DNA of 64,000 bases from a virus (IMGVR_UViG_3300031993_000017); one strand, 5' to 3'. Shown: positions 6,887-44,632, counted from the first letter of the stretch. Numbers and translations are program-made. The notes: generated by a model from the sequence alone, not told the origin.

Positions 6887-7950
6887 GATTTTAACCCCTT
6901 TCTTTTATCATATTCCGAAACAATCATTCTTAATTGCTTCATACTAATCCTGGAATAGATGTATTTTACACAGGAATTGTGAATATCTAACATCTTAATC
7001 CACCCGATATAAGTAAGCATTTGCCTACTTTCATAAAAGGTTGGTTCTTGCTTCTTTGACAGTCGTTTTGCCTTTGTAATCATCTTATGAAAAATGGATT
7101 TCCGCATGGTGATTCTATCTCTGTAAAATTTACAGCCTAAGAAATCTAAGAATCTACCTTTATGGGTTCCATGTGTGATATAATCAAATCGAAATAACTG
7201 ACATTTGTTATTTAATGAAAGTCCTATATGTTCTAAATAATTACTAATAGAAATCCATGTTTTATGCAATTTTCTTTTATTTGCACCGAATATTACAAGA
7301 TCATCAACATATCGAATGTAGTGAGGTGCGTACATTCCCTGTTTTATCTTATGATCCAATTCATTCAGATAGAAAATCGAAAACCATTGGGAAGTATAAA
7401 ATCCCAATGGAATACCAGTTTCGGAATTTATAATTTTATCACATAACCCCAAAAATTTATTATCACTTATTTTCTGTGATAATTTCTGTTTCAGAATCGT
7501 ATGGTCAACACTTTGAAAATAATGGTGAATATCTAATTTCAAACAATACTTTACATTCTTTTTATCGGTCTGAATCCATTTTTGAATGACTTCCTTTGCC
7601 GATTTTATTCCACGATTCGGTACAGAACCATAGGTATATTCATACAAACTTTTCATCACAATCGGTTTGAATACATTTACGATCATGTGATGAATAATCT
7701 GTTCATCCATTTTTGGTACGATTATTTCTCGTTCCTTTTGTCTGATCCCGTCTTTAATTTTAACAGGGGTATGTTTTGGTGGGATATAATTTTCAGCAAG
7801 TGTTCTGTAATACTCACAGAATTGTTCTGGATGTTCTGACATAAAAAGAACCTTTGGTCGATCCTTCCGACCTCTTGCATAGTCCTTAATGGCTATACAA
7901 ATATTTTGATCGGAAATAAGATTTTCCCAAAGATTCTTATATGTTTTCAT
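6853..7950 (-). CDS. DGR reverse transcriptase
   Basis: KLDIHHYFQS, GIPLGFYTSQW (DGR-type G...SQ), RYVDD; adjacent TR/VR pair; probable start ATG 7950 (MKTYKNL) after AAGAGG. Confidence 0.95.
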   Translation of the reverse strand: MKTYKNLWENLISDQNICIAIKDYARGRKDRPKVLFMSEHPEQFCEYYRTLAENYIPPKHTPVKIKDGIRQKEREIIVPKMDEQIIHHMIVNVFKPIVMKSLYEYTYGSVPNRGIKSAKEVIQKWIQTDKKNVKYCLKLDIHHYFQSVDHTILKQKLSQKISDNKFLGLCDKIINSETGIPLGFYTSQWFSIFYLNELDHKIKQGMYAPHYIRYVDDLVIFGANKRKLHKTWISISNYLEHIGLSLNNKCQLFRFDYITHGTHKGRFLDFLGCKFYRDRITMRKSIFHKMITKAKRLSKKQEPTFYESRQMLTYIGWIKMLDIHNSCVKYIYSRISMKQLRMIVSEYDKRKGLKSCHSSFTKYLN

Positions 7951-8074
7951 TTGTAACCTCTTATTCACACAAATCCTATGCGATTTTCAATTTCTCTACT
8001 AACCGCACCTTCTATCGGAAAATTTTTACACTGTGGTAAGGAAGATGACCTGCATTGAACTCTCTACAAACTTA

Positions 8075-8191
8075 ATAAGTGGGGGAGGAGCCGATATTCC
8101 AGTTCCGATTCGAAGCCGAATTGTTCAGATTGACATAGAACGAACCGCAATTCGTACCGTTGTTCGAATTACCGCCATGATAGGCGAAAGT
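8075..8191 (-). ncRNA. DGR template repeat (TR)
   Basis: Ungapped copy of 8425-8541 at offset 350; non-coding; rich in AAC/AAT triplets. Confidence 0.95.
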
Positions 8192-8418: not shown

Positions 8419-10044
8419 TTAGGTACAAGAGGGGGAGGAGCCGAACCCCCAGCCCCGACTCGAAGCCGAAACGTTCAGATGGACAAAGAACGAACCGCAA
8501 TCCGCACCGTAGTACGAAATACCGCCATGAAAGGCGAAAGTATTTATACCAGTGTAGCAATAATCACAATAACATTTTGTGCTACTTGCAGGACTTCCTG
8601 TTGCACTTGCAATCATTGTGTCGGAGATAAAAGTCTCTTTTGAGATATATTCACTTGCTGGAGAAGAAATACCTGTGTTGATATATCCAGTTCCATTGTC
8701 TGAGAATCCATCAGCGGTAGAGCCATCATCTTGTCCGAAACAATTTTTGATATAATGTGTTCCACTTTTCAGTATATGACCTTCGTATCTCCGAAATGCA
8801 AATCCCCACCAGTTCTCCATTCCGAAAACTTTCACGCAATTTGTAAAATTTGTACTTGTAACTGATCCGCTATTTGTACCATAAAACAGCCCTTTTTGAT
8901 TCTGTTCGCCTGTTCGGAAAGCATCATTGATCGCTTCTGAACCACCAGATGTTAATCCTTGTCCATAAACTGCCTGTGAATTTAAGGATTTCCCAAACAA
9001 TACCAAAAGTAAATTGATAAGTGTGACTTCCGAAAGAGTAGTCATGTGGTAATTTGATCCGTTGTTTACACACATTGTACGGGATTCACTTGCCGTAATC
9101 TTATTCATAGCTCTACTGCCACTAACAGATCGCATTACAGCACTTGCAGAATAAGTATCACCGACTACCGAGCCATTGTATGCCGCCATATAAAAATGTT
9201 CTTTATGTTCTTTTGATGGGCCTATATAAGCATAATCCTTATAAGAAGAATCAATCTTCTTATTAGAGAAATAAATGCTTGCGGAAGTCGGATCACCTTC
9301 ATCTGGAACCATTTTCATATAAATCTTAGGGAATTCTACCATTACATTTCCCATGTGATATGGAGAAGTAGCGTCAGCGTCCATTTCTGCCTGTGTGATC
9401 GGGACTGTGTTTCCGTCTATATCCTTTGTATAATCATTCGGATTCAGATAACATACAACCTCACCTTGCGGATTTAAGATACAAGGCTTAATTCCATTGA
9501 TAATAAAATTATCACCCCAGGAACCGTAAGAGAATTCTTTTGTCGTAAAATTCATCTTTGCTGGTGTCATTCCGACAGCATCTTCCAGATAAGCAACACA
9601 TGCCGAAGGATCGGATTCAGAAGAATCAATATGAATTCCGTATATCACAGGTTTCTCTTCATTCCGAACACTGTATATCTGACCGCCGATTTCAATGGTA
9701 GTAAGATTCGTCACAGGTGCGGTATCATCATTCGGAATTACATTCTGAGCATAAACAGATGTGGTAGTTGAATTATTCACCTTAATCTTAGCGATTTCTT
9801 TTCCGCTTGTACGAACCTGTGTAACAGTCACTTGTATATGTGATTGTGCAGATTCATTAACAGCACCGATTAAAGTCTTATCTGTTGTAACAAGTGAATC
9901 ATATTCTGAATTTACCGTCAGATCGGCAATATCATCAACAGGAACAGCCTTAGACTTATCACTTGAAGTAGTTTCAAGAATATCATCTTCTGTTACTTCA
10001 TCGGTATTATTTAACTCAGAAATTTTGTAAAACTTTTTTATCAT
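8419..10044 (-). CDS. DGR target protein, tail fibre/adhesin with C-terminal CLec-like variable domain
   Basis: Ends in VR (FHGGISYYGADCGSFFVHLNVSASSRGWGFGSSP); GMENWWG motif. Confidence 0.9.
   Translation of the reverse strand: MIKKFYKISELNNTDEVTEDDILETTSSDKSKAVPVDDIADLTVNSEYDSLVTTDKTLIGAVNESAQSHIQVTVTQVRTSGKEIAKIKVNNSTTTSVYAQNVIPNDDTAPVTNLTTIEIGGQIYSVRNEEKPVIYGIHIDSSESDPSACVAYLEDAVGMTPAKMNFTTKEFSYGSWGDNFIINGIKPCILNPQGEVVCYLNPNDYTKDIDGNTVPITQAEMDADATSPYHMGNVMVEFPKIYMKMVPDEGDPTSASIYFSNKKIDSSYKDYAYIGPSKEHKEHFYMAAYNGSVVGDTYSASAVMRSVSGSRAMNKITASESRTMCVNNGSNYHMTTLSEVTLINLLLVLFGKSLNSQAVYGQGLTSGGSEAINDAFRTGEQNQKGLFYGTNSGSVTSTNFTNCVKVFGMENWWGFAFRRYEGHILKSGTHYIKNCFGQDDGSTADGFSDNGTGYINTGISSPASEYISKETFISDTMIASATGSPASSTKCYCDYCYTGINTFAFHGGISYYGADCGSFFVHLNVSASSRGWGFGSSPSCT
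8425..8541 (-). repeat. DGR variable repeat (VR) at the 3' end of the target gene
   Basis: 19 mismatches to TR over 117 nt, 18 at TR adenines (minus strand). Confidence 0.95.
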
Positions 10045-10128: not shown

Positions 10129-11103
10129 TTAAATTTCTTCTGTGTTTATTTGGATGTATTCGCCAATAGCATCTAGCAGCTTCTTGGCAGATGTATATTC
10201 ATCTGTCTCGCCGCGACGACCGTCTTTAGGAAGACCTGTGTATCTGCTAGATCCACCTCCCTCGTCAGTTGTAACTACAACATCGTAATTCAAAGGATTA
10301 TCTGAATCCGGATAAATTGTAAGATGTTCTATCTCTGACCAATCACGGCCATTTCTGTCCCAACTAGCCGCCTCCCTGTCACGTGTTCTCTTACCGAAAT
10401 GTACAGGTATTTGATTTTCAATGAAGTACATCAAAAGGGGTCTTGGAAGCCAGCAATGTTTGTCCTCAAATGTTAATAATCCATTGGAAGACGGTATGTT
10501 GTTTTCAATTTCATGTGCAGTTCTTGTATCAACATACTTCTCATCATTTTTTACGCGTCTATCTATGGCAGAGAGTAGGTCATCGTAACCTTTGAACCGT
10601 AAGGTGTCAAATATTGCACCTTTAAGACCTCTCCAACCAATGATCGAAGCTGCGTAGTAGTATGTAAATAACTTATTCAAATCTTTGATTGCTTTTACAT
10701 TTACGTTACTACCTTTATCACGGTAGCCGATAAGTTTCTTGATGATAGCATCCGTAGGCTTGTATTGATCAATGTCCATAGCATTAAGTTCTGCGGAGTA
10801 GTCGTCTTCAGCCTGCTGCTTATCACGTTCATATTCAGATTTCAATTCTGACATATCATAGTAGAAATAGATGTCACCATATCGCTTTGTTATGTACTTT
10901 CCACCAATCTTTTTGATTGTAGATATCCATTCATCAACAGAAGTTGCATAACGAGAACTTTCTGGAGATAAAACAAAATTCCACTTGCCTTCTGAAATGG
11001 GTCTCAAGCTTGTACGACTGCCCCATGAAATTCCTAACTTGCTCTTAAGTCGTTCCATCGGATCACTCACGAATCTCTTTGAGCTTTTAATGTATCTCTT
11101 CAT
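10129..11103 (-). CDS. hypothetical protein with MKRYIKSS leader
   Basis: ORF; shared N-terminal motif; AACCTT box upstream. Confidence 0.8.
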   Translation of the reverse strand: MKRYIKSSKRFVSDPMERLKSKLGISWGSRTSLRPISEGKWNFVLSPESSRYATSVDEWISTIKKIGGKYITKRYGDIYFYYDMSELKSEYERDKQQAEDDYSAELNAMDIDQYKPTDAIIKKLIGYRDKGSNVNVKAIKDLNKLFTYYYAASIIGWRGLKGAIFDTLRFKGYDDLLSAIDRRVKNDEKYVDTRTAHEIENNIPSSNGLLTFEDKHCWLPRPLLMYFIENQIPVHFGKRTRDREAASWDRNGRDWSEIEHLTIYPDSDNPLNYDVVVTTDEGGGSSRYTGLPKDGRRGETDEYTSAKKLLDAIGEYIQINTEEI

Positions 11104-11160: not shown

Positions 11161-11451
11161 TTACTGTAGGTCATTGACAATTTCTATACCATACCAAGAA
11201 GAAAGTTCTTTTGACAAATATGAAATAAATTTCTGTTCATCGAAAGGCGTTGTAATCATGCGGTCCCAACAATCTGCAAAATCAGGATCAGTAGCGCACA
11301 AGAAATCAATAACACTCCTTGCAGTTACAGCCCCATCTTTGAAAAATTCATTACCATCTTTTACAGCATAGCAGACACTTCTTGCAAGATCACGAGTTTC
11401 ATAGATTCTAGGTTCCGTATATTTCTTTGAGCTTTGTATGTATCTTTTCAT
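11161..11451 (-). CDS. hypothetical protein with MKRYIQSS leader
   Basis: ORF; shared N-terminal motif. Confidence 0.75.
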   Translation of the reverse strand: MKRYIQSSKKYTEPRIYETRDLARSVCYAVKDGNEFFKDGAVTARSVIDFLCATDPDFADCWDRMITTPFDEQKFISYLSKELSSWYGIEIVNDLQ

Positions 11452-11538: not shown

Positions 11539-12782
11539 CTAAATATTACATGCGTTTACCACAATTGGATGTAACGCTACACCCTCTATCCCATTGCTGT
11601 AAGCGTTTGGGAATACTTTTTTAAGAATTTGCAAACTACCATTCACATCAGAATTGATTAACACACCGGAATCGCTTTTAAATAAACCACGATGAATCCT
11701 ACGAGATTTATTGTAATTCTCTTTAATTGGTAACTCATTATCTAAGAAACTTGTCCCACTTGTGTAACTTTCTTCTGTGAGCACTACAGATATACCATAT
11801 TCTTCAGCTTTGTATTTGATCATCTCCATCAATCTGTTATATGGTATCTGTATAAAAGATTGGTTAACTCTTTTGCTCATTTCTGATTTCTGTTTCCAAC
11901 ACTTATTGTTGCCTATAACTATTACAGAAACATCATCACTATGTGCCTTATCAACTATGTATCTACTTGCCTGATGTAAGTAGTTATCAATAATCTGATT
12001 TCTTTTCTCTGTTATACTTAGTATTCTTTTTGTTGAATACTGCTTATTCATCCTCATAGCAATTGACTTGTAGTGAGCTAATAATTTATTATAATATTTG
12101 TTCTCAGACTTCAGACCCTTACCGTTTATTATAAATGGTTGTTCACCAAAATTATTTGTTACGGTTGCTAAGTTATCTAAGCCTATGTCAATACTATAAT
12201 ATCTGTTATTATCGCATACTGTTTCTGGAATTTCTATATTATAAACCACCTCCAATTCAATATGATTTGCTTTAGGTATGAACCTTACTTGCTGAAATGA
12301 CACATAATTTTCATTGCTTATAAATAATGGTTTGATTGAAAAACCATTAAATACTTTGGGAAAATGTAAGATACCATTTTTCAAGTTTACTTCTTGGTTT
12401 GTAAGAGTTAAAACACATCTGTCGCTCTTATCTTTATACTTTGGCAATTTAGGTCTTCCTAAATACTTGTCTTTATTATTTTCCAATCCTTAATAGATTT
12501 GAAGAACGACTTCCAATTTTTATCGAGTAATCTTAATAACTGCTGTGCTGATTGTGCAGTTGGCATATTCTTATAGTCTGGATATTTCATATCAGCTTTT
12601 AATGTTTTGTCCAAGTCTTCATATCTTAACCAGTTGCCATTGCTTACAAACTCTTGTCTGATTAAATAGTTGGCATGGTTATACAAATTTTTTGCGTTAA
12701 AGCAAAAACTATCTATAAGAAGATAATAAGTATTCGATTGTTTAATTTTGTGTTTTTCTACTCTTTGAATTACCATATCCAT
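11539..12782 (-). pseudogene. tnpB: TnpB (IS200/IS605 family, tnpA-less IS1341-like), split by a -1 frameshift near 12480
   Basis: N-part AKNLYN...AQSAQQLL; C-part SIDIGLDNL (RuvC-I), EESYTS, INSDVNGSLQIL (RuvC-III); possible right end TCAA at 11516-11519. Confidence 0.85.
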
Positions 12783-12971: not shown

Positions 12972-13334
12972 TCACTCTACAATATCATGCCATTTGCGAA
13001 TTGCATCTACATGACGAGAATCATCACGAGATGGTCTTACAATTTCACCGTTCTCATCATAAATCGTCCAGAAGTTAGAAGCGTCATATGTGTAACCAAT
13101 TCTATCAAGATATCGCTGAATATCAGATTCTTCTGGAATATCATAATAGGAAAGTTCATCAGATGTTAAAAATCTTGGAAGCACTACAGCAGTGTAGCTG
13201 TTAGGCAGATCCCATATCTTCACGATACTAACATCTCTAGGAACAGTACCAGGACCAAGTCCGTGTTTCAGGATATAAAAATATCCATTTCTTGAATATG
13301 TATCAGAAAAACTTGAACGAATGTATCTTTTCAT
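12972..13334 (-). CDS. MKRYIRSS-leader protein with HGxxPGxxP...LTxDEL..YDI domain
   Basis: Paralog of 13354-14028 and 62952-63251. Confidence 0.8.
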   Translation of the reverse strand: MKRYIRSSFSDTYSRNGYFYILKHGLGPGTVPRDVSIVKIWDLPNSYTAVVLPRFLTSDELSYYDIPEESDIQRYLDRIGYTYDASNFWTIYDENGEIVRPSRDDSRHVDAIRKWHDIVE

Positions 13335-13353: not shown

Positions 13354-14028
13354 TCACTTCATCCTATTTTTGAGAGTTCTCATTATTGCAGCTACTGCTA
13401 CTCCTAAGGAAGAGTATGTATACTCTCTGTCAAAATATGGAGTATATCCAATAACTTCCCAATCATCGTCACCGAATTCATAAACAGGCTCAACAGATAC
13501 TATAGTTCTTCCGTGAAAAACAACTTTGGCAACATGCTTGTTATCTTCTCCCTTCCCCCACTCTAATGATATTCCTGGGAGAGCTTTAGGAAGTTTTTTC
13601 AACGTATCAATATCTTTTTGTTTCCAATCATGATCAATAGCATCTTGCGTCAATTCAAAAGACGGTTGTACTTTCGCACCGTTCTTAAGATCGTTTGCTA
13701 CTTTAGCGGAAGGAGCACGAAATGGTTTTACAACTTTACCATTTTCATCGTAGAATGTCCAAAAGTCATTTCTATCATACTTGTACCCAGTTTGTTCAAG
13801 ATATCGTTGAATATCCGATCCGGATAAAGGTAGATAATCTCCAAGTTCAAGATATCTTAGACGCCTAGTAAGAACTACAGCAGTACGATTTTCTGGTAGA
13901 TTCCAAGCCTTTATAACAGAACCATCATTAAAAAATGTAGGATCGGGTTTACGTTCAAGAATATAGAAATATAAATCTCTTGAATACTGATCAGAATAAT
14001 CATAACTTGATCGAATGTATCTTTTCAT
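13354..14028 (-). CDS. MKRYIRSS-leader protein, tandem paralog of 12972-13334 with an extra C-terminal domain
   Basis: Shared YSR..YFYIL, W.LP...TAVVL.R.L, SDIQRYL, FWT.YDENG. Confidence 0.8.
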   Translation of the reverse strand: MKRYIRSSYDYSDQYSRDLYFYILERKPDPTFFNDGSVIKAWNLPENRTAVVLTRRLRYLELGDYLPLSGSDIQRYLEQTGYKYDRNDFWTFYDENGKVVKPFRAPSAKVANDLKNGAKVQPSFELTQDAIDHDWKQKDIDTLKKLPKALPGISLEWGKGEDNKHVAKVVFHGRTIVSVEPVYEFGDDDWEVIGYTPYFDREYTYSSLGVAVAAIMRTLKNRMK

Positions 14029-14046: not shown

Positions 14047-14832
14047 TCAAAATATGTCGTCTTCGTCTTCGAATCCTTTGTAAGAATCGAACCATTCACG
14101 AGCCTCATCTAATGTGTCACATTCGTAATCATAGTCACCATCTTCGGGACGATACAAATCGCTATCACCGAATACAAACACATACTGGTCATTTGCCTTA
14201 TCGTAGTACATTGTGTACTCAGTTAAGAATCCGTCACTGTCACGAACATACTTGCTGTCAATACATTCGAAGTCATCGCCGCTTGATTCTTCATCGTCCC
14301 AATCTGGGTCGTAAGAAGCGTTGACACGCTTATTACAAGATGCAATGGAACATGATTCAATGGGCTGTATTGTGTATTTTGCTCGGTAGTAATCGCTATC
14401 AGTAGTATAATCTGAATCAGACGTTGTAACTTTGAAGGTAGTTGACAGATCCATCTCATCTAACACTTCTTGAATAAGCTGTTTAGCATAAGAATGATCA
14501 TTCTTCCAATCACCTACTACAGTTAATGTAATCTTACCACCTTCCGAAGATACATTGTCTTCTAAACCGTTCTCAACGAATTTATCTTTTATCGCCTCGA
14601 TTAGACCATCTCGATCAAATGACTCGCTACTCTTTATGTAGTCATCGTCTTTATCTTCTAATGTTTTGATATACTCAATAGCTTCATTAGGACTAGAAAA
14701 TTCAGGCGACACTCTTTTGCCTCCGGTCATTACTACCCACCCTGAATGAGTGTCTACTACGCTGTATTTTCCATCTTTGAAACTGTCGCTTGCTAAAATC
14801 CTCTTTGTTATCTTCATTTCATCTACCTCCAA
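14047..14832 (-). CDS. three-module hypothetical protein (putative polyprotein)
   Basis: KRILAS / YIKSS / KRVNAS motifs precede three distinct segments. Confidence 0.75.
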   Translation of the reverse strand: MEVDEMKITKRILASDSFKDGKYSVVDTHSGWVVMTGGKRVSPEFSSPNEAIEYIKTLEDKDDDYIKSSESFDRDGLIEAIKDKFVENGLEDNVSSEGGKITLTVVGDWKNDHSYAKQLIQEVLDEMDLSTTFKVTTSDSDYTTDSDYYRAKYTIQPIESCSIASCNKRVNASYDPDWDDEESSGDDFECIDSKYVRDSDGFLTEYTMYYDKANDQYVFVFGDSDLYRPEDGDYDYECDTLDEAREWFDSYKGFEDEDDIF

Positions 14833-15910
14833 ACTTTTTCATTCTTCGTGCAAATGACTCATATTGCTCAAAAAGTGAAACACAAAAATCAGTAACAATT
14901 TCATTGTGATACAATTCATCATCGAAATAATCATCGATGTAAATATCGCAACTTACTATTGTCGTGTTACCACGGTTATCAGATACGCTTACTTCTACTA
15001 TATAATTTTCATCATCAACAGTTGCATAATCGCATACCCAATGATAATTCTGGAATATTGGAATAAAATCTTTCCTGAGTATGCCGCTGTCGAGGTCGTT
15101 TATGTTATTTTCTAAGTCTTTCAGTATGAGTCTACTGACGTGATCTATGTTACTGCAGGAGTAACTAGCATATACTGCAGATTTAATCGGTTGAGTTTTT
15201 GTGATTGTTTCCCATACTGCATCAAAATACTCCCGCAACCGATGCTTTATATCGTCAAAATCAGAACTACCAAAAGGTTTTGAATATTCTTTTAGATCTA
15301 ATAAATCTACACAATCCAGTTGATAATCTTCTGATGACAGTTCTTTGTTACTATGTTCACCAGTCTCTTTAACTTCTTGTAATGATACCTTTCGAAGAAG
15401 CGTCATTACCGGAACTAGCTCAACCTTAGAATACTTTTCACCAAATTCTGTTACAATACCTTCTTTAGTTAAGTCCCAATTTTTTAAGAAGGAACTATCA
15501 ATATGATCAGAAATTCTTACATAGACTGCAATTGGAATTGACCTTTGTTTACCATTGAGAACATCTACAATTACATAAAAACTCTTGCTTACTGGTGACG
15601 ATTTTAAATATTCTTGGAGTTTCTCCATATCATCGTCATTATCTGTATAAAATATATCTCTTCCTTCTAAAAGATCATATAGGAATTTACTGTCATCACC
15701 GCTTACATCGCTTGGATGCATTGCATATATGCGGTATTTTTTATTGTCATTCAGAATATCTAATACACACTTTCTGAATTCAGAAAATATATCCATAGGA
15801 AATTTTCTGCTTCTGCGTACACTTGCAGAAACTGGCTCTTCAGTCGATTTCACAGAATGTGTAATTTCAAATTCTATTTCAACTGTTAATAATTTACTCA
15901 TTAAAATCAC
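14819..15910 (-). CDS. hypothetical protein, paralog of 1709-2734
   Basis: SKSFYV..DVL...VRISDH; C-terminal W.C.Y...DN.G domain. Confidence 0.75.
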   Translation of the reverse strand: MILMSKLLTVEIEFEITHSVKSTEEPVSASVRRSRKFPMDIFSEFRKCVLDILNDNKKYRIYAMHPSDVSGDDSKFLYDLLEGRDIFYTDNDDDMEKLQEYLKSSPVSKSFYVIVDVLNGKQRSIPIAVYVRISDHIDSSFLKNWDLTKEGIVTEFGEKYSKVELVPVMTLLRKVSLQEVKETGEHSNKELSSEDYQLDCVDLLDLKEYSKPFGSSDFDDIKHRLREYFDAVWETITKTQPIKSAVYASYSCSNIDHVSRLILKDLENNINDLDSGILRKDFIPIFQNYHWVCDYATVDDENYIVEVSVSDNRGNTTIVSCDIYIDDYFDDELYHNEIVTDFCVSLFEQYESFARRMKKFGGR

Positions 15911-22764: not shown

Positions 22765-23244
22765 TTACTTGGAACGTCTTACTCTTCTTGCAGATGAAGA
22801 AGGACGCTTCTGAGTAGATGCAGAAATCCGAGAGGTTCTAGCTCTACGTACAGTAGAAGCAGAAACCGGCTTTCTTGCAGGGCGTCTTTCAGCTCTTCTA
22901 GCAACTCTAGAAGATGCACTAACAGGACGTCTACCACGAAGGCTTGTTGCAGATACAAGCTCCTCCTCGTCACCCTCAGCCTCAACGGTGTACTCTACAC
23001 CATCTACACTGAAAGTTACAGCATCATCCTCGGAATAAACTTCTACAGGCTTCTCGGAAATCTGATAAATCAGCTCTCCAACTTCCTGTGGACTAAACAG
23101 AAGCTCGGAAGCCTCTTCAGAAACCTGAACAGGATCCTCATCGACTTCATCAGTTACTTCCTCATCAACTTCAACTGCATCGTCAAAATCTCTGATGTCT
23201 TCATCAGCCATGATTCTACGAGATCTTCTACCTTTAACGATCAT
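22765..23244 (-). CDS. putative internal head/core protein: acidic core with Arg/Ser-rich tail
   Basis: Charge-segregated; five motif copies (IMAD, VSAT, VSAS x2, ISAS). Confidence 0.65.
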   Translation of the reverse strand: MIVKGRRSRRIMADEDIRDFDDAVEVDEEVTDEVDEDPVQVSEEASELLFSPQEVGELIYQISEKPVEVYSEDDAVTFSVDGVEYTVEAEGDEEELVSATSLRGRRPVSASSRVARRAERRPARKPVSASTVRRARTSRISASTQKRPSSSARRVRRSK

Positions 23245-25070: not shown

Positions 25071-25772
25071 TTACGCCTCGTACGTAGCAGACACTTTTTG
25101 CTTTATGACATCACTTTGCATTGGATGCTCAATACCATATCTCTCTAAACATGTTTGTTCAGCTTTCTTCCGGCATTCCTCACGTGAAAATGGATTTCCA
25201 TCTTTGAATCTCAACTTCTTTGCACATTCTTTAGAGCAGGTCTTTCTGTAGTCTTCAATAGTCAAATCAACTTCATATTCTTTTCCGCACCAATCGCATT
25301 TTCGGAAGTGAGGTCCGGAACAGAATTTACTTGTATTTGTTGTTGGATGAAATTCTTTTCCACACCATTCGCAAATCTTAGTAGATGCTTGGTAGCTTTC
25401 TACAAGCTTAGAATAGGCATACGCATCTATACAAGATTGCTTTCCACATGTTTTTGTTCGATTATCACCACAATGATATTCAAAAGTTTGCGCACAGATT
25501 ACACATGTCCCACGCTTAGTATGTTTACAATATTTCTGCCGAGAAGATCTAGGTGTGAATGTATCACCACAGATCGAACACACTTTCTGCTCAGTTAACG
25601 CAAGTTTACTAGCACATTTCCTACTGCAGACCCCAGGACTACTAGGATTGCACTTAGTTACAAATGTTTTACCACAAACTTTACATACTTGTTCAATGTT
25701 CCTGTTGCAGTAAACAGATCTTGATGATTTGGGTTGAAATTTGGTTTTGCAAATTGGACAGGTTTCTTCCAT
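25071..25772 (-). CDS. multi zinc-ribbon protein (six CxxC units) ending in a T.LERYG repeat; homing-endonuclease-like N-terminus without nuclease domain
   Basis: CxxCG..F......yCs..C repeats. Confidence 0.7.
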   Translation of the reverse strand: MEETCPICKTKFQPKSSRSVYCNRNIEQVCKVCGKTFVTKCNPSSPGVCSRKCASKLALTEQKVCSICGDTFTPRSSRQKYCKHTKRGTCVICAQTFEYHCGDNRTKTCGKQSCIDAYAYSKLVESYQASTKICEWCGKEFHPTTNTSKFCSGPHFRKCDWCGKEYEVDLTIEDYRKTCSKECAKKLRFKDGNPFSREECRKKAEQTCLERYGIEHPMQSDVIKQKVSATYEA

Positions 25773-25927: not shown

Positions 25928-27397
25928 TCACATGATTCCTACGATTCTACCAGATACAACGGTTGCAGGGTTAACTACCTTCGCAGCATACATCGTCGCA
26001 TAGCCTTGCTGCACGCTGGCATTGGCCAATCCTATTGCATCGGTGTTGGTAAGAGGCATATACTCACCAAACAGAGCAGAGTTTCTACGGATGTCGCTAG
26101 ACTTGCAAGACATAACCCAAATGTTAGGATCGAAGGAAGGATCGCAATATACTTCGAACTGATCGATAGTACCTGCCTTGTACGGACCAACAGTCTCGCC
26201 AGTAGGAGCAGCAACCCAACCCTGTACCATGGACAGGTAAGACTTAACATTGGTACCAACAATAAGTCTATTAGGCTGAGAAAGTCTGGTCTCCTGATAG
26301 ATGGAAGCAGCAGCCTGAGTCAGCTTCAGCTTGAACATGTTCAGGTAATCAGAAGGAACTACTGCACCAGAGAGTACAGGAGATGCATCCCAGTTAAACT
26401 GAGGTCTAACAGATGCAGCTGCAAGCAGCTTCTGGAAGCAAGAGGTGTTGATCTCAGCAGTGAGCTCGGAGAAAGCAGCAGACTTAGCAACATCTGCAAT
26501 GTTAGCGCCCCATTCCTGGTTAGCTGCGAATGCAGAATAGATGCTCCAGTAGCAAGCAAGCTGATGTGCTTCTGCTACAAGGTTGAACTCATCGAGCTGT
26601 AAGTAACCTTTGCCCATCTGAGCGCCGTAATCATAACCATAACCACCGTTGTCAGGTACACGAGGACCTACGTTCTCGTTGTCGTACTGATAAGTAGCTA
26701 CTACAGAATCACCAGCAGCACCAGAAATACCGGTAATGGTGAAAGTACCCATTGCATAATCAATAGTACCCTTCTGAGTAGTTGTACCAGACTGTACAAG
26801 TAAACCGTTACCGTCGTCTACAACAGTTGTAGTAGTTCCGGAAAGGGTGTAAGTGATAGTTACAGAACCCGGAATAACGGGAGTGTAAGCAAGAGCACCA
26901 TTAGCGGTGATTAAAGTACCTTCTGCAACGATTTCGTTCTTGATAACACGACCGGTGAAGTTAGGATCAATACCCTGGCGGTTTACAAAAGGACTAGAAA
27001 GGATGTCGCCGGCCTTGGTCTCACCCTTATTGTTTTCAGCAATGAACTTGAAGTAAGGAACCATCTGAGTTCTGGAATTCATCGCTACGGAACCATAAAC
27101 ATCGAGCACAAGCAGGTTCTGTACGAACAGAGGCAGAAGCTCTAAGAAATCAGGCTTTGCCATCACGTTTGTAGTATTGGTAGCAGCGGTAATGGTGCTC
27201 TGACCTCTCATGTTTCTCTGCAGCTGACGAACGAAAGACTGCTGTTCAGGATTAAGTTTAGACAGTCCGGCACTAAATCCGGAAGATGCTCCGCGTCTTG
27301 CAACGCTAGCAGTAATGTTGCTTCTTGCAGGTCTATTGATGCCAGCAGCGGCACTAATAGGACGAGCGGGACGAACAATTCGCTTATTGATATTCAT
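25928..27397 (-). CDS. major capsid protein (T4 gp23-like) with basic propeptide
   Basis: DVYGSVAM, ELTAEIN, VYCDP, EYMPL, GYATMYA patterns; follows prohead protease. Confidence 0.9.
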   Translation of the reverse strand: MNINKRIVRPARPISAAAGINRPARSNITASVARRGASSGFSAGLSKLNPEQQSFVRQLQRNMRGQSTITAATNTTNVMAKPDFLELLPLFVQNLLVLDVYGSVAMNSRTQMVPYFKFIAENNKGETKAGDILSSPFVNRQGIDPNFTGRVIKNEIVAEGTLITANGALAYTPVIPGSVTITYTLSGTTTTVVDDGNGLLVQSGTTTQKGTIDYAMGTFTITGISGAAGDSVVATYQYDNENVGPRVPDNGGYGYDYGAQMGKGYLQLDEFNLVAEAHQLACYWSIYSAFAANQEWGANIADVAKSAAFSELTAEINTSCFQKLLAAASVRPQFNWDASPVLSGAVVPSDYLNMFKLKLTQAAASIYQETRLSQPNRLIVGTNVKSYLSMVQGWVAAPTGETVGPYKAGTIDQFEVYCDPSFDPNIWVMSCKSSDIRRNSALFGEYMPLTNTDAIGLANASVQQGYATMYAAKVVNPATVVSGRIVGIM

Positions 27398-27418
27398 CTT
27401 TATTTCTCCTTTATAAGA

Positions 27419-28912
27419 TTATAGTGTAATTAAACTATTACCTCCATCAGGCGATACGCTCATAAGTTTTGAGTTAGGCTTGGAGGTTTCGTGAATACCT
27501 GACCCGCCAATTATCTTCTGAAGTTGGCGGACAGTAGTGGAAGCAGTAATAGAGCCAGGAACCTCGCTCAAATCTACTCCTACAGCGTTTGCATAAATTC
27601 TTGCATACGCGTTTTGGTATTCTTCTAGTAAAGTATAAGCAGCAGTGAGTTCTTCAGATAATTCGTTGACCTGTGCATCAAAGTTTGATGTGGATGCTTC
27701 AATTTCAGAATGCTTTCTGACGGTTTCATCAAGATCTGATTGAAGCTGAGACAACTCAGAATCACGCTTCTGTAATTCAGACTTAGTAGATGCTATTACA
27801 GCGTCCTTTGAAGATAATTCATCGGACTGTGAAGCAATTACATCATCTTTCTCTGCAAGTTCTGCAGAAAGATCTGAAAGATCCTTTTTCGTAGATGATA
27901 AAATGTCTGACAATTCATGAAGTTCTGATTCTCTATCTCGAAGAAGCTTTTTACTTGCTTCTACTTTTCTCTTATATTTAAGGTTTTGTAATTGAACGGA
28001 ACTTACCCGGTCTTCTAGCTCCTGAATTTCGCTACCAAGTACATCATTTTCTCTAGAAAGATTGTCTATTTGAGCTGCCATTATACGCTTGATAGCTTTG
28101 AGCTTTCTCGAATTCTTTAAACTTCTGTTAGCAAGTAATGTTCTAAGTTGTGCATTCTCTTCCTGATAATGCTTTATGTCTTCACAAGAAGCTAAATACA
28201 ATTCAGTCATTCCGTTCAGTCGATCTTTTACTATATCTGAAGAAGGTGCTTTTGCAGACAAGATGCTTTGCTTTTTCTGCTCAAGTGCTTTGTATTCATC
28301 GGACTGTTTTGCGAAACAAGACTGAACTATCTCTATGGACTGAGAAGTATTAAGTGCGTCAATGTTTTGGTTAACTGCTGCGCAAATCCGACTATATTTC
28401 TTTTGAGATTCTATATCAGAAGAAGCAGCAATTTCTGTAAATGTAGGAATAGACTCAGGGAATGCCGGGAACGACACTAAGTCAAATCCACGGAATACAA
28501 ATGTTTCAGGGTCAACAGAATTGTTAACAATGTCACCTGCACCTCTTACAGAAATTCCAAATGTTACACCTGCATCAATGAAAGCTTTAACAATTTTTCC
28601 TACAGGAGTATCAACAAGATTAAATTTTCCTTGAATCTTTCCGTTGGCGTCGATACTTCCTTCAGTCATCACGATACATGCATGTTCAAAATCCATACAA
28701 TTCGGATCGTCGGGATGCCCTAAGAAACCGATGTACCATCCAAGTTCAATAGCTTGACGATATTCGTCAGAATTAAATACATTCTCCCAAACTTCTGCAG
28801 TTATATCAAGACCGTTCTTGTTTGTGATGTTAGCATCTGCGCACTCACCCTCAAACACACCTAATACAGAAGTCTTTACTCCGGAATTACTTTTGATATC
28901 CTTGTCTCTCAT
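27419..28912 (-). CDS. prohead protease (T4 gp21/assemblin-like fold) fused to a coiled-coil scaffold
   Basis: NKNG, GFLGHP, TPVGKIVK, GISVRGAG, FDLVSFPAF; C-terminal ~330 aa coiled coil. Confidence 0.88.
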   Translation of the reverse strand: MRDKDIKSNSGVKTSVLGVFEGECADANITNKNGLDITAEVWENVFNSDEYRQAIELGWYIGFLGHPDDPNCMDFEHACIVMTEGSIDANGKIQGKFNLVDTPVGKIVKAFIDAGVTFGISVRGAGDIVNNSVDPETFVFRGFDLVSFPAFPESIPTFTEIAASSDIESQKKYSRICAAVNQNIDALNTSQSIEIVQSCFAKQSDEYKALEQKKQSILSAKAPSSDIVKDRLNGMTELYLASCEDIKHYQEENAQLRTLLANRSLKNSRKLKAIKRIMAAQIDNLSRENDVLGSEIQELEDRVSSVQLQNLKYKRKVEASKKLLRDRESELHELSDILSSTKKDLSDLSAELAEKDDVIASQSDELSSKDAVIASTKSELQKRDSELSQLQSDLDETVRKHSEIEASTSNFDAQVNELSEELTAAYTLLEEYQNAYARIYANAVGVDLSEVPGSITASTTVRQLQKIIGGSGIHETSKPNSKLMSVSPDGGNSLITL

Positions 28913-30621: not shown

Positions 30622-31845
30622 TTAGATGAATGAAATCATTCCATTTCCATCAAATTTGATCTCATCAATTTCAGAACTTCCGATAAACAATGTTAATTCA
30701 TTTGCGGAAGATACTTCCTTGATACGACCGTCTTTATACTTGATTGTGATAGAATTATTTTTAGATTCAGTATATCCAACAGTCTGAATATTGTCAATAG
30801 CGGGTCCAACAATCTTTGTAGGTTCTGCAACAATCAGAGCATCTGATTTACTAGACACTCTGAATTTAGAACATACGCTCCGAAATGTAGAAATAGAAAT
30901 ATGATATTTCTTGCAAAATTCTTCGGTACCTCCAGGATATGATTTAGCTTCTTCAATTCGTTCCAATGTCCAAAACCCGTTTGGATTCCTTGTTCTAGTG
31001 TTACAATCTACGCCACGAACATAACAAGCCATCTGATAAGCTTTTTCAGTTGTTCGGTTGTCAGCGCAGAACTGTTTAATTCCGCCGGGGTATGACTTCG
31101 CCTCTTCGATCTTTTCAAGTGACCAGAATTTTGCCTTTCTACCGCGATTAGTGCGTGTACGTTCTCCTACTGGCATAGAAGCTAATCCAAATCTTTTACA
31201 AGCTGCTCTATATCCGCCAACAGCTACATCATTGTCCTTACAGAAATTTTCAGCACCGCCTGGATAATTCTTAGCTTCTTCGATTTTATCAAGTGTCCAA
31301 AATCCTTTTGGAGCTCTGTGTTTAGTTGCGGTGGAAACAGGTAAATCATGCTGTTTAGATTCACTTCGATCAACAGATTCAACGTCAATATCTGAAGCAA
31401 ACTCTGGTACCGCTTCAGTAGAATCAAAAATACCTGCTACATCTTCATCGGTGAGTTCGATAGTATCGTCTACTGTATTAGTAGCAAGTTCGTTCAGTTC
31501 ATTCAGCTCCCGCTTCTTTACTTTCTGACCAGGAAATCCAAATTTCTTGTAGTGGTAAAACATACTATATGATAAGTTATGTTCTTTGCAAAATGAACTT
31601 GCAGAGGGTGCTTTCAACGCCTGCTGAAATAATTCAAATGTCCACATGCTGTTTCCGCGTCCATCTGTTACCTTTGATGCAGAAGAAATATTATGACGGA
31701 AACAATAATTCTGATAAGATTCAAACGTAACTTCATGTTTATCACAATACCTACGAACACCTGTAGGATAATGTTTTGCTTCACTGACTCGTTTCTTGTT
31801 CCAAAATCCTGATCTTGCCATATCGTTTTCTCCGGAGATTATCAA
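30622..31845 (-). CDS. protein with five ~42-aa HTH-like repeats
   Basis: FWxxxxIEEAKxYPGGxxxFC repeats. Confidence 0.75.
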   Translation of the reverse strand: MIISGENDMARSGFWNKKRVSEAKHYPTGVRRYCDKHEVTFESYQNYCFRHNISSASKVTDGRGNSMWTFELFQQALKAPSASSFCKEHNLSYSMFYHYKKFGFPGQKVKKRELNELNELATNTVDDTIELTDEDVAGIFDSTEAVPEFASDIDVESVDRSESKQHDLPVSTATKHRAPKGFWTLDKIEEAKNYPGGAENFCKDNDVAVGGYRAACKRFGLASMPVGERTRTNRGRKAKFWSLEKIEEAKSYPGGIKQFCADNRTTEKAYQMACYVRGVDCNTRTRNPNGFWTLERIEEAKSYPGGTEEFCKKYHISISTFRSVCSKFRVSSKSDALIVAEPTKIVGPAIDNIQTVGYTESKNNSITIKYKDGRIKEVSSANELTLFIGSSEIDEIKFDGNGMISFI

Positions 31846-36595: not shown

Positions 36596-36841
36596 TTAGT
36601 TTTCTGTGAACAGCTGATATTCTACAATATCTTCAGGAACATCGCAGTCAAAAAATCTGATATGCATTCCGTTAGAATTGGTGTATTCGACCAATGTTGC
36701 TTCAGCGAAGCTACCATCACGTAATTTAACTGCATAGTTGTTGTTTTCACTATTCCTGTAATCGTACTCTGGCAATCCATTTTCAATTGGAATCCAAGAC
36801 GCCGATGTACTGCTAGCTACTACAGACGTATTTAAGTTCAT
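36596..36841 (-). CDS. small protein with DUF551-like WIP....LP motif
   Basis: GAGGAGG RBS; VVASS leader motif. Confidence 0.6.
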   Translation of the reverse strand: MNLNTSVVASSTSASWIPIENGLPEYDYRNSENNNYAVKLRDGSFAEATLVEYTNSNGMHIRFFDCDVPEDIVEYQLFTEN

Positions 36842-37913: not shown

Positions 37914-38588
37914 TCAATATGAAAAACTGAGTAACCATTTGACAGCTCTATCAATCTCTTTTGATATAAGGGATGGATTCTTGTAAAACTTAGCATCATT
38001 GAATGTAACTGCTTTCTCAAAATCTGACATAATATTCTCTTGACCTTGAGTCTTATCTGCTACATATATAACACCAGTAACTTCTCCAGAATGCACATTG
38101 TAATTTGTTTGATAACTAAAAGCAAGTTTCACCCTAGAATTTCTATATTTGATTACTAACCCTCTGCATAAGTTCCTAACATCTTCCTCGAATCTATCTA
38201 CCTTTGCAATAATCTTCTTCTCTTCTTCAAATTCCTTATAAGCTTGTCCTAGATTGAAGGTTATGACCATATCTAAATCTTCGGTGATATCTTCAATTGT
38301 GTTGAACCTTGTAGAAAATGTAGTGCTGTAAGTATTTGGAAGTGTCGTAGTATATGCTAGTTCATAACCTTTGTACTTTATAGTACCAAACTTAGATACA
38401 GGAAGTCCAAACAGCTTTGTGTAACGGAATGTATACTTAACTAAATTGTCAACTAATGATATTATCTCTACTTCACCAGAGCAGTTGTAACTACTTGCGG
38501 TGTGATCTAAAATCTTTTGCATTTCTTCTGTAATCTCAGAAACTGTTACAGACGTAGGATTGTGGCTAGCTAAAATGCGAATTCTCAT
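37914..38588 (-). CDS. hypothetical protein with MRIRILAS leader
   Basis: AAGGAGG RBS, promoter box upstream. Confidence 0.75.
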   Translation of the reverse strand: MRIRILASHNPTSVTVSEITEEMQKILDHTASSYNCSGEVEIISLVDNLVKYTFRYTKLFGLPVSKFGTIKYKGYELAYTTTLPNTYSTTFSTRFNTIEDITEDLDMVITFNLGQAYKEFEEEKKIIAKVDRFEEDVRNLCRGLVIKYRNSRVKLAFSYQTNYNVHSGEVTGVIYVADKTQGQENIMSDFEKAVTFNDAKFYKNPSLISKEIDRAVKWLLSFSY

Positions 38589-39895: not shown

Positions 39896-41160
39896 CTACG
39901 AGAGCCTTATTCTTGCAGGACTCGCCAAAAGTCCCAGACACAGTTTGTCGAAATCGACATTCTGCTTACATTTTCTCATTATGTTTGCCGCACCATTTAC
40001 ATCTGCATTAACGATTGTACCATTCGCAGAACAATACAGACCTCGATGTAGTCTCTTACCACTAAACTTACCTGTATATGGTTGTTCAGGCTTGTATTCA
40101 GGCAATACATCTTTGTCAAGGAAACTGCTTTTAGATGTATATGCTTCTTCTTGTTCGATGTAGTCAATACCATACTTCCAACAAAGAAAACTCAACTGAT
40201 TTCTCAAATCTCCGAGAGGTATCTGAACAAAATTCTGATTGTTTACTTTGCCGATGTTAGAATTTCTTTTGAAGTCAGCATTATATCCAACGACAAGTGA
40301 ACCTATATCATTTTCTATACAATAGTCAATGATATATCGTGCAGTCTTTTTGATACAGTCATTTACCTGATTATTGCGTTTAGTAGTAATTCTCTGAATA
40401 CGATTAGTAGTTTTCAAATTCTGTTTCATAGCAATTGAGCGAAGCCTTGACATCTCTTTATTCCACTGGTGATTGATTGATTTAATTTTACGACCATCCA
40501 TTATGAATGATGTCCCAATTGTGGAAACGCAAGTTGCTAAATTATCTATTCCGAGGTCAATTGAAATTACATTGTCTTTATTCAGATTTATCGGTTCTTC
40601 GGTTACTTCATACACATACTGAATTTTGAATACTCTACCATTACCGCAAGGCAAGATACGAACTTCTTTAATAGTTTTATCTGAAAGCCTTTTAGGAAAT
40701 GGTATTGCAATCTCTTTAACTTCAGGATGTAATGCCCTAAACTCTCTACTCATAGGGAGCATCAGATAATCACCACGAATAATAATCGCATTAGTAGAAA
40801 GCACTAAATTGAATAATCCCCCGATTTTCTATAATGTGGTATCTTTACATCGTGGTAGCGGTAATCACCGACTTTACACTTTTTCAGCAAATTGAAGAAT
40901 GATTTGAAACTGCGGTCAACAACTTTCATAGTTTGTTGAGCCACACCTGCTTGCAGTAACTTGTAATTTTCATTAGTCTTACATTCGTGATAATTACTCT
41001 CGTAGGTCAAAAACATCTTGGTATCAAAATAATGTTGTCTTATATTGTAAAGAGCAACATTATACAGATTATTAGAATATCGACACATTTCTTTAAGTAG
41101 ATTATATTGCTTTTTGGATAATCCTCGAATGACATTACTTTGTACTGCGTAAGTTGACAT
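39896..41160 (-). pseudogene. tnpB: TnpB split by a -1 frameshift in a G5 run near 40820
   Basis: SNNLYNVALY N-part; SIDLGIDNL, EEAYTSK, VNADVNGAANI C-part. Confidence 0.88.
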
Positions 41161-41937: not shown

Positions 41938-42855
41938 TCATAAATGAGACATGTAATTTCTAGTGTCTTTCATGTAACTTTTTACTTTGTCAACATAATC
42001 TAAGAACACTGCTAATTGATAGTCATCATATTCGCCGTACTTCTCTGCGTCTTTGGCCGGCTTGAACTCATTATCATTGTTGAAACATTCTCTTAACATT
42101 GTTCTATAATTGCCGATAGCTCTAGAAAGTGAATCTATTGCCCTTTCATAGTTATCACTATAATTTTTTCTATCAACGCTCCGAATGTCAAACGATAAAA
42201 CCTCATCACGAAGATCTTGAAGTTCTGTATACAGCTTATCTACTTTAGCCATTGCAGCCTGTGGGAACTTCCTTACTGCACGGCCTAACATCTCAGAAGG
42301 ACTAGGAACGGAATATCCGGACTTGTCTCGATTCCTGTCGTTTCTCCAATATGCTCCCGATTCTGACCAGCGTCCTTCGCGGTCTTTGTGCTGACCTGCA
42401 TATTGTCCTTCATTAGACTGCCAATCATAATGATAACGAGGATCTCTGTATCGTTCTTCAGGAATATCAATCAAATTAGACGGATCATCTAAATCTACAT
42501 AAACTACGTCTTTCGTAACAGACCAAAGCGTGTCGTTTCCGAGCTTCTTTGGATCTCTCTCACGACCATTTATTCGTATTGTAAAGTTTTCCATCAGTCC
42601 TGGAGCGTAAACTTGATCGTACAAACCGTTTTTCAATAAGTAGAATGCTTGATAGTGCCCGGATTCCGGAGGTGTCTTCACGAATTTAGCACGATCCCAA
42701 GCGATAGAAGATTGTCGACCTAATTTAGCTATATTATATTTATCAAATTTAGGCGGATTCCAACCCCTTTTCGGCATACTTTTCTTCAGCCATTCTGGAA
42801 TAGACGGTGAAAATGAAGCCTTTACATAAGTAGCACTTTTAACGTATCTTTTCAT
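41938..42855 (-). CDS. hypothetical protein with double leader MKRYVKSATYVKASF
   Basis: AAGGAG RBS; shared motif. Confidence 0.8.
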   Translation of the reverse strand: MKRYVKSATYVKASFSPSIPEWLKKSMPKRGWNPPKFDKYNIAKLGRQSSIAWDRAKFVKTPPESGHYQAFYLLKNGLYDQVYAPGLMENFTIRINGRERDPKKLGNDTLWSVTKDVVYVDLDDPSNLIDIPEERYRDPRYHYDWQSNEGQYAGQHKDREGRWSESGAYWRNDRNRDKSGYSVPSPSEMLGRAVRKFPQAAMAKVDKLYTELQDLRDEVLSFDIRSVDRKNYSDNYERAIDSLSRAIGNYRTMLRECFNNDNEFKPAKDAEKYGEYDDYQLAVFLDYVDKVKSYMKDTRNYMSHL

Positions 42856-44266: not shown

Positions 44267-44632
44267 TCAATACTGTTCAAAGCCAATTGCTTTAAGATGA
44301 CGTTTCAGATCGTAAAATGTGTCAAACTTATCTGAAATCAGCTTACAAACACGATGTAATTCAAGAAGTGCTTGAGCAGGAGTTCTATGACAGTCACCGC
44401 TAACACAGTCACCAAAAGAGTAATCCATATCATATTCATCAATTACATCTATTTCAATTCCGTTAACAGTTGACAAAATATCAAGAACTGTCCCGTCATC
44501 AAGAACAAGTTCTGCGATATACGGATCACTACCGTCATCAAATTCTTCGGCACCTCCCCATGCATACCAATCGTTCTTAGTGAATCTACGAGCGTTGTAA
44601 TTGTAACTACTAGCAAAAACACATTTTCTCAT
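44267..44632 (-). CDS. hypothetical protein with MRKCVFASS leader
   Basis: AGGAG RBS. Confidence 0.7.
   Translation of the reverse strand: MRKCVFASSYNYNARRFTKNDWYAWGGAEEFDDGSDPYIAELVLDDGTVLDILSTVNGIEIDVIDEYDMDYSFGDCVSGDCHRTPAQALLELHRVCKLISDKFDTFYDLKRHLKAIGFEQY

Follow-up and report, generated by a model that had tools for sequence, protein, structure and literature searches.

A T4-type prohead protease fused to its scaffold, with an apparently assemblin-like cleavage code, in a clade of uncultured phages

Background

Glu at P1, the residue before the cut, has been regarded as invariant in prohead proteases of the T4 and phiKZ types and has served to predict which head proteins are processed. 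The T4 enzyme gp21, for which H85 and S140 are published catalytic residues (PMC12991175), removes nine N-terminal residues (L-I-E↓T, the arrow marking the cleaved bond) that block its active site (PMC9958956). Proteases of the T4 type are also sensed by their hosts, in which the cyclases of antiphage signaling systems based on cyclic oligonucleotides (CBASS) bear (I/L)-x-E decoy loops that serve as tripwires (PMC12991175). In herpesviruses, the scaffold's C-terminus binds the capsid (PMC4498786). Our literature searches for an S77 protease with a specificity other than Glu found none, only Glu-specific S77 and S80 proteases. The present study concerns a protease-scaffold fusion gene and the adjoining capsid gene in a window of 64,000 nucleotides (nt; 64 kb) of the 157.6-kb viral contig IMGVR_UViG_3300031993_000017, which belongs to a large clade of uncultured phages (~125-225 kb) that appears to break the Glu rule.

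An original prediction, made from the sequence of this window, had proposed that a gp21-like protease domain is followed here by a coiled-coil scaffold and cuts after small residues, at release and maturation sites resembling those of herpesvirus assemblin. From motif statistics, homolog conservation, phylogeny, and structure prediction, we consider it likely that this S77 protease, made as one polypeptide with its scaffold, cuts at [I/V]-x-[A>S>G]↓[S/A/G/N], with a beta-branched residue at P3, often Thr at P2, and small residues at P1 and P1′, a code that would replace the (I/L)-x-E↓ found in every relative characterised so far. Glu at P1 is a trait of the S77 members studied and not what defines that family, which is drawn by homology.

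Methods

Coordinates are those of the window, all genes of which lie on the minus strand. Expected motif counts were derived from the other 82 open reading frames (ORFs) of the window, and because the motif had been defined after looking at the data, a hypothesis-blind scan of all a.cd patterns (372 patterns) was run alongside. An exhaustive profile-free search with the 166-aa domain (aa, amino acids) yielded a clade (at least 48% identity) and a sister group (~34-44%) with the same fused architecture; 81 clade representatives and 53 sister proteases were then aligned jointly, with T4 gp21 added. A protease-core tree was built without the site columns and rooted on T4. Across 80 IMG/VR loci, fused proteases were paired with the neighbouring capsid genes. 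Scissile bonds were placed by homology with T4-type sites.

Results

The protease domain

The two genes and the catalytic residues of the protease are as follows.

27419-28912, minus strand: protease-scaffold fusion gene, 497 aa (ORF; Pfam Peptidase_S77 at aa 20-131; phrog_207 at aa 20-415)
28424-28912, minus strand: gp21-type protease domain, aa 1-163 (AlphaFold2 model, Foldseek, aligned triad)
28715-28717, minus strand: catalytic H66 (aligns with T4 H85; kept in 137/138 aligned sequences)
28550-28552, minus strand: catalytic S121 (aligns with T4 S140; kept in 138/138)
28481-28483, minus strand: catalytic D144 (aligns with T4 D168; kept in 138/138)
25928-27397, minus strand: gp23-family capsid gene, 489 aa (Pfam Gp23, 1.5e-17, aa 93-479)

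The gp21-like nature of the N-terminal domain was borne out. Pfam PF03420 (Peptidase_S77) matches aa 20-131 with 28.3 bits against a cut-off of 27 (E 1.5e-6), a score so narrowly above the cut-off that the protein is to be regarded as a divergent member, and phrog_207, annotated as "head maturation protease", matches aa 20-415 at 4e-22. An AlphaFold2 model of aa 1-200, the structure prediction that had been suggested as a check, has a predicted local distance difference test score (pLDDT) of 91.4, and its top Foldseek match in the Protein Data Bank (PDB) is T4 gp21 (5JBL; E 1.3e-6, template modeling (TM) score 0.69 by target, root-mean-square deviation 1.7 Å, 137 columns), after which comes a long series of herpesvirus proteases (E about 2e-3, TM about 0.4). 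The catalytic Ser that had been placed in G-I-S-V-R-G is S121. The relationship to gp21 is drawn from Pfam and the fold search and not from PDB sequence searches, which missed 5JBL, whether the query was the domain alone or a full-length profile, and returned chance and coiled-coil matches only. No Pfam assemblin match was obtained at E <= 0.1, nor any PDB sequence match to a herpesvirus protease. The enzyme is a member of MEROPS family S77 with an apparently assemblin-like code, not a member of S21.

The capsid gene starts 22 nt downstream of the protease-scaffold gene, the head-module context expected of an S77 protease, and the same protease-then-capsid order is found in 19 related loci. 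For each of the two proteins, metagenomic homologs number in the hundreds, on contigs of ~120-225 kb; 120 homologs of the protease-scaffold are full-length (45-63% identity), and one homolog is a protein of a metagenome-assembled genome deposited under a human-metagenome "Siphoviridae sp." record. Among cultured phages even the nearest are distant, with capsid identities of 24-28% to Streptococcus phage GXN1, Bacillus phage HSE3, and Listeria phage LIS04.

Motif enrichment

Every string listed in the original prediction was present at its place. The protease-scaffold carries E-I-A-A-S-S at aa 160-165, immediately past the final strand of the protease domain, followed by R-I-M-A-A (276-280), K-V-E-A-S (316-320), D-I-L-S-S (336-340), D-V-I-A-S (357-361), A-V-I-A-S (371-375), E-I-E-A-S (403-407), and S-I-T-A-S (454-458), and the capsid protein carries P-I-S-A-A (13-17), N-I-T-A-S (27-31), and T-I-T-A-A (68-72). 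The motif [IV].A[SA] occurs eight times in the scaffold tail where 0.51 occurrences are expected (Poisson P = 7e-8; 0/2000 composition-preserving shuffles reach 8) and three times in capsid aa 1-75 where 0.11 are expected (P = 2e-4), so that motif density in scaffold and propeptide, one of the quantities by which the original prediction was to be judged, lies far above background. It is absent from the protease domain (0 vs 0.24 expected) and from the mature capsid protein (0 vs 0.62), neither deficit being significant. The blind scan put I.AA at the top of the 372 patterns (P = 3.7e-7), followed by I.AS, and the Glu-type motifs [ILV].E and [SAG].E were not enriched, the tail holding 10 [ILV].E words. 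Across 120 capsid homologs, the motif stands 7.4-fold over shuffles in the propeptide and at 0.59-fold in the mature part, and among the 222 ORFs of a complete relative it is the protease-scaffold that is most enriched.

The clade and its Glu-type sisters

Column 163 of the joint alignment holds Ala in 81/81 clade sequences and Glu in 53/53 sisters, and the release site accordingly reads [IV]-A-A↓S in the clade, [VL]-[TVN]-E↓S in the sisters, and I185-T186-E187↓S188, in the same column, in T4 gp21. Capsid junctions are paired with these sites: the clade loci (5/5) combine protease x-A-A↓S with capsid [IV]-M-[AG]↓A-T-N-T, and the sister loci (14/14) combine V-T-E↓S with [LIM]-N-E↓A-F. The cultured GXN1, HSE3, and LIS04 are all of the Glu type; the GXN1 capsid protein has L-L-E↓S 20 residues before the conserved core, and the protein studied here has I-T-A↓A 18 residues before it. 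Scaffold tails are reciprocally enriched, with [IV].A[SA] at 6.5-fold over shuffles in the clade (77/77 sequences) and 0.93-fold in the sisters, and [ILV].E[SAGT] at 0.93-fold in the clade and 3.4-fold in the sisters (52/52 sequences). The homologous release column, the paired capsid junctions, and the reciprocal tails together give strong comparative support to the small-residue P1 that had been proposed. The herpesvirus-like layout of release and maturation sites held in part: motifs for both sites are present, but the arrangement is not special, as the Glu-cutting relatives have both, and because these relatives share the release and C-terminal sites, it is only P1 that changed.

The protease-core tree recovers the clade as monophyletic (81 tips) on a stem of 1.05 substitutions per site, nested among Glu-cutters. 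This nesting indicates that the Ala code is derived, and since it is derived within S77, its likeness to assemblin is convergent. We propose, from these sequences, that Ala or Ser took the place of Glu at P1 a single time, on the clade stem. Four positions that are R or K in 49-53 of the 53 sisters differ in the clade: position 32 (R in sisters; N, L, or K in the clade), position 35, equivalent to T4 R55 (R; L or M, with L35 in the present protein), position 70, equivalent to T4 R88 (R; P), and position 155 (R or K; I or V). Two acidic positions, 63 and 72, likewise differ between clade and sisters. We regard R55/L35 as the leading candidate for recognizing the P1 carboxylate because Arg occupies position 35 in all alignable S77 proteases of the Glu or Asp type among the 80 IMG/VR loci, which include short T4-like proteases reading I-M-E↓G. 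Position 70 was judged a weaker candidate, being variable among the short T4-like proteases. V122 is made less likely as a determinant by phiKZ gp175, which also has S-V-R after the catalytic Ser; otherwise gp175, too divergent for reliable alignment to the domain profile, was left out of the argument on the S1 pocket.

Predicted sites in the protease-scaffold

Sites and segments predicted in the fusion protein are listed below.

28889-28912, minus strand: possible N-terminal pro-peptide, aa 1-8, ending I-K-S↓N (comparison of clade leaders)
28421-28432, minus strand: predicted release-type site I161-A162-A163↓S164 (conservation, alignment to the sister/T4 Glu site)
27542-28423, minus strand: coiled-coil scaffold, aa 164-457 (coiled-coil matches in Pfam and PDB only)
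28376-28387, minus strand: predicted internal site I-C-A↓A, aa 176-179 ([IV]176-C-[AS]-[ATS] conserved in 120 homologs)
28073-28084, minus strand: predicted internal site I-M-A↓A, aa 277-280 (I277-[TM]-[AS]-[DSA] conserved in 120 homologs)
27539-27550, minus strand: predicted maturation-type site I455-T456-A457↓S458 (conserved in 120 homologs)
27422-27541, minus strand: C-terminal 40-aa tail beyond the last site (conserved hydrophobic end L-[IV]-T-[LIM])

The conserved sites stand out from sequence that otherwise varies among the 120 homologs. The release-type site is nearly invariant in them ([IV]161, A162, and A163 in 120 each; S164 in 116). It occupies the linker that joins the last strand (157-160) to the first tail helix (167-182), a stretch in which the pLDDT of the AlphaFold2 model dips to 70, a dip that suits an exposed self-cleavage site. 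The maturation-type site is conserved to a similar extent ([VI] 120, T 107, [AS] 115, [STNA] 118) and is followed by an invariant T459. The distance from the last site to the C-terminus has a median of 44 aa in the clade (Ala type) and 32 aa in the sisters (Glu type), and we propose, by analogy with herpesvirus scaffolds, that the 40-aa tail of the present protein would be a docking peptide for the capsid protein. Further candidate internal sites occur at 317, 358, 372, and 404; those at 337, 358, and 372 lie within an insertion common to only 5-7 close relatives, in which the motif is present too. At the N-terminus, 38/81 clade leaders are basic and carry [ILVM]-x-[AS]-small ahead of the first strand, and a Glu-type site is present in 0/81, whereas [ILVM]-x-E is found in 31/53 sisters.

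Capsid protein and other candidate substrates

In the capsid protein, the predicted segments are these.

27185-27397, minus strand: capsid propeptide, aa 1-71, with predicted sites I-S-A↓A (14-17), I-T-A↓S (28-31), and I-T-A↓A (69-72) (homolog conservation)
27182-27193, minus strand: predicted capsid junction site, aa 69-72 ([IV]-[TM]-A-A in homologs)
25931-27184, minus strand: predicted mature major capsid protein, aa 72-489 (Pfam Gp23, junction conservation)

The propeptide is very basic (+12/-1). The first 70 residues of the 120 capsid homologs are basic and vary in both sequence and length, yet two words are fixed within them: aa 28-31 read [IV]-T-[AS]-[GSNA] ([IV] 120/120, T 120/120, [AS] 117/120), and the junction has [IV] in 120/120, A71 in 117/120 (G in 3), and A72 in 120/120, followed by an invariant core start. 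Insertions in the longer homologs are extra copies of the same word. A mature protein beginning at about A72, as had been suggested, agrees with the register and with the spacing from the conserved core. A cut after E51 (L-x-P-E) was considered and rejected because E51 is not invariant, being A, D, Q, or T in some homologs, and because P3 is unfit. The AlphaFold2 capsid model was poor (pLDDT 53.8, with aa 1-40 of low confidence) and was not used.

Beyond the fusion and the capsid protein, two groups of candidate substrates carry the motif.

22765-23244, minus strand: 159-aa head-core-like protein (acidic middle, basic Arg-rich arms, five motif copies)
10129-11103, 11161-11451, 12972-13334, 13354-14028, 41938-42855, and 62952-63251, minus strand: six ORFs with the leader M-K-R-Y-[IV]-x-S-[SAN] (shared leader, otherwise unrelated)

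The 159-aa protein contains I-M-A↓D, L-V-S↓A, and three copies of P-V-S-A↓S or I-S-A↓S, with R-x-P-V-S-A↓S words repeated, and its homologs in four clade genomes retain L-E-A↓S immediately past the acidic core as well as V-x-A↓S in the basic tail; it is a probable further substrate of the protease. If cleaved, its arms and the capsid propeptide would yield short, very basic peptides that might act as DNA counter-ions. The leader of the six ORFs, probably a head-targeting tag that is clipped off, has variants at 14047-14832, 36596-36841, 37914-38588, and 44267-44632, all ending in the same proposed cleavage word, and M-K-R-V-I-R-S-S leaders are found in the complete relative (L090-L098). Two strings that had been matched to sites of human cytomegalovirus (HCMV) are indeed present, T-Y-V-K-A-S-F as aa 9-15 of 41938-42855 (minus strand), where the leader is duplicated and so yields the Y-V-K-A-S string, and K-R-V-N-A-S-Y as aa 168-174 of 14047-14832 (minus strand); they are members of the enriched motif family and not evidence of homology. 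Separately, the paralogs 1709-2734 (341 aa) and 14819-15910 (363 aa), both on the minus strand, have [IV]-[TS]-A↓S at aa 26-29, just before their shared region, and are possible internal head proteins from which an N-terminal peptide would be cleaved. Five clade records yielded no homolog of either, and their predicted processing is a guess.

Other features of the window

A diversity-generating retroelement occupies part of the window (6853-7968, minus strand; 8077-8191; 8427-8541; 8419-10044, minus strand; 4247-6886, minus strand). It has a reverse transcriptase gene (phrog_1423, 1.9e-85) and a 115-nt template-like repeat with 84% identity to the 3′ end of a tail-protein gene (phrog_5302), the mismatches lying nearly all at adenines of the template copy, and a second phrog_5302 paralog adjoins. 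Two transposase genes of the insertion sequence (IS) type are present at 11539-12486 and 39896-40804 (both minus strand; phrog_506, 2e-35 and 1e-28). Just upstream of the head genes, 30622-31845 (minus strand) encodes 407 aa with at least four repeats of a ~45-aa module (F-W-x-x-x-K-I-E-E-A-K-x-Y-P-G-G ... C), its sole match being a weak one to a PHROG of unknown function, and between the capsid and neck genes, 25071-25772 (minus strand) encodes 233 aa with many zinc-ribbon-like repeats (C-x-x-C / C-x-x-x-x-C). A strong AGGAG/GGAGG ribosome-binding site stands before most window genes, and the G+C content is ~36%, which together suggest a low-GC Gram-positive host.

Discussion

The sites described above can be arranged into a maturation pathway. 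The fusion would co-assemble with the capsid protein, its C-terminal 40 residues docked on the shell, and after assembly the protease would trim its own short N-terminal leader, release itself at I161-A-A↓S164, chop the coiled coil at about 6-8 sites, and detach the docking tail at I455-T-A↓S458. It would divide the basic capsid propeptide of 71 residues into three pieces, leaving the mature protein to start at A72, and would also trim further head proteins: the acidic 159-aa core protein and those that begin with the M-K-R-Y-I-x-S-S leader. Along with the P1 change, basic residues conserved in the Glu-cutters would have been lost, foremost the equivalent of T4 R55 (L35).

Several observations weigh against this account or limit its reach. 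Support for cutting after Ala or Ser is entirely comparative, and the T4 end of the comparison includes a presumed cut at E187↓S188. The protease domain is not depleted of the motif across homologs (0.29 vs 0.14), and the internal sites are loose in places: P1′ at site 277 is Asp in 54/120 homologs, site 317 has E or I at P1 in 53/120, and no conservation is seen at site 404. The clade node has a support value of only 0.80, and the switch is a single evolutionary event, so that co-occurrence alone does not show which residues are causal.

A protease that retained Glu specificity, with the [IV]-x-A-[SA] words being structural or compositional features (Ala/Ser-rich heptads, low-complexity basic arms) that are left uncut, would account for the several motifs within the coiled coil, where small residues recur, and the tail does hold its 10 [ILV].E words. 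The words are nevertheless not confined to coiled coils, as the domain linker, the disordered basic propeptide, and the N-terminal leaders carry them too, whereas Glu-type words are at 0.93-fold in clade tails vs 3.4-fold in those of the sisters. Nor do the available Glu residues look like sites, since the only one in the capsid propeptide is the replaceable E51, E160 beside the release site is found in only 56/120 homologs, and the Glu of the homologous sister site has become an invariant Ala; we therefore regard retained Glu specificity as very improbable. We give just as little credence to cleavage of the motifs by a host protease or a second phage protease, with the S77 domain inactive or otherwise employed. 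The window is 64 kb of a 157.6-kb contig and another protease could be encoded outside it, but the triad is kept in 137-138 of 138 sequences, and four clade genomes (three estimated complete, one 84% complete) have no S78 or ClpP-type match. In the same four genomes, Pfam S77 gives a weak match at a single place in two and misses the divergent protease in the other two. The changed sites, moreover, include the protease's own domain-end site and change together with substitutions in the protease core; this covariation and the lack of an S78 or ClpP match make a second protease unlikely.

The motifs might instead be binding or targeting signals, for head incorporation or scaffold-shell contacts, with cleavage at one or two of them at most. 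The same word ends an N-terminal leader common to unrelated proteins, much like a capsid-targeting tag, and in T4 a targeting tag and a cut site are adjacent with distinct functions (PMC9958956). Yet at the domain end, near the C-terminus, and at the propeptide junction, the motif positions are homologous to the Glu sites of relatives; in number and spacing the tail sites conform to the shredding of T4-type scaffolds, and targeting and cleavage are not mutually exclusive. We find this reading quite improbable, and the three alternatives remain unlikely even when taken together.

If the protease cuts after Ala or Ser as we think likely, several consequences follow. The Glu rule at P1 appears to be broken in the clade, so mature protein ends there need a different prediction code. 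The case is one of enzyme-substrate co-evolution, in which one change of the protease on a stem lineage accompanies recoded sites in its own polypeptide, in the capsid protein, and in other head proteins, and the comparison names specificity residues that can be tested, T4 R55/L35 first. A phage protease of herpesvirus-like fold that has converged on the assemblin code V/I-x-A↓S bears on the plasticity of the S1 pocket, and if hosts sense phage proteases by Glu decoy loops, the switch could affect immunity. That the rewriting from Glu to Ala/Ser, involving the pocket, dozens of sites, and at least 10 head proteins, was an escape from such decoy-loop sensors, with the basic peptides becoming DNA counter-ions, is a speculation that we hold to be improbable.

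Comparison with known systems

The S80 proteases phiKZ gp175 and SPN3US gp245 are distant relatives of gp21 that have a C-terminal extension and act in phages with many processed head proteins (PMC5694885, PMC10052503), but their measured cleavage is after Glu in (S/A/G)-x-E. Far closer to the present protein are the sister fusions (metagenomic P0332-P0390; vB_SagM-GXN1, vB_BceM-HSE3, and LIS04), which have the same architecture at about 450-600 aa, with a site directly after the domain, a last site ~30-45 aa from the C-terminus, and an adjoining gp23-type capsid gene with a cleavable propeptide. They differ in that their sites are all [VLI]-x-E↓[SAG], the propeptides of their capsid proteins are helical with a near-neutral charge, and their protease domains are ~30-44% identical to that of the present protein.

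Herpesvirus assemblin (S21; pUL26 of herpes simplex virus and pseudorabies virus (PrV), pUL80a of HCMV) likewise has the protease N-terminal to the scaffold in one polypeptide (PMC4498786, PMC8537868), with a release site at the domain end and a C-terminal site that frees a tail, of 37 aa in PrV (PMC4498786) and a predicted 40 aa in the fusion described here. The folds are related, and motifs fitting the code (V/L/I)-x-A↓S stand at matching conserved places, as read here from sequence. An N-terminal protease, a release site, and a C-terminal tail site are, however, also common to herpesviruses and the Glu-cutting sisters. The catalytic triad is Ser-His-His in assemblin (PMC4498786), whereas the third residue here is an invariant Asp (D144), as in T4; there is no sequence-level membership, and the Ala code is derived within S77. 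As to a nested scaffold gene of the UL26.5 type, the sequence has no in-frame start with a strong AGGAG-type site between aa 100 and 330.

With T4 gp21 (S77; 5JBL; substrates gp22, gp23, gp24, and internal proteins) the protein shares family, fold, His-Ser-Asp triad, and an aliphatic P3. The protease gene likewise lies just upstream of the scaffold and capsid genes, the scaffold has multiple cuts, a capsid propeptide of ~65-71 aa is removed, a site falls at the same post-domain column (I-T-E↓S in T4), and a short N-terminal leader is self-removed (PMC9958956), these cleavages being predicted ones in the present system. In the fusion described here, P1 is probably Ala or Ser instead of Glu, as the sequences of the homologous sites indicate; protease and scaffold form a single polypeptide, whereas T4 gp21 is encoded separately from gp22; T4 R52, R55, and R88 are replaced by K, L, and P; and the capsid propeptide is strongly basic (+12/-1).

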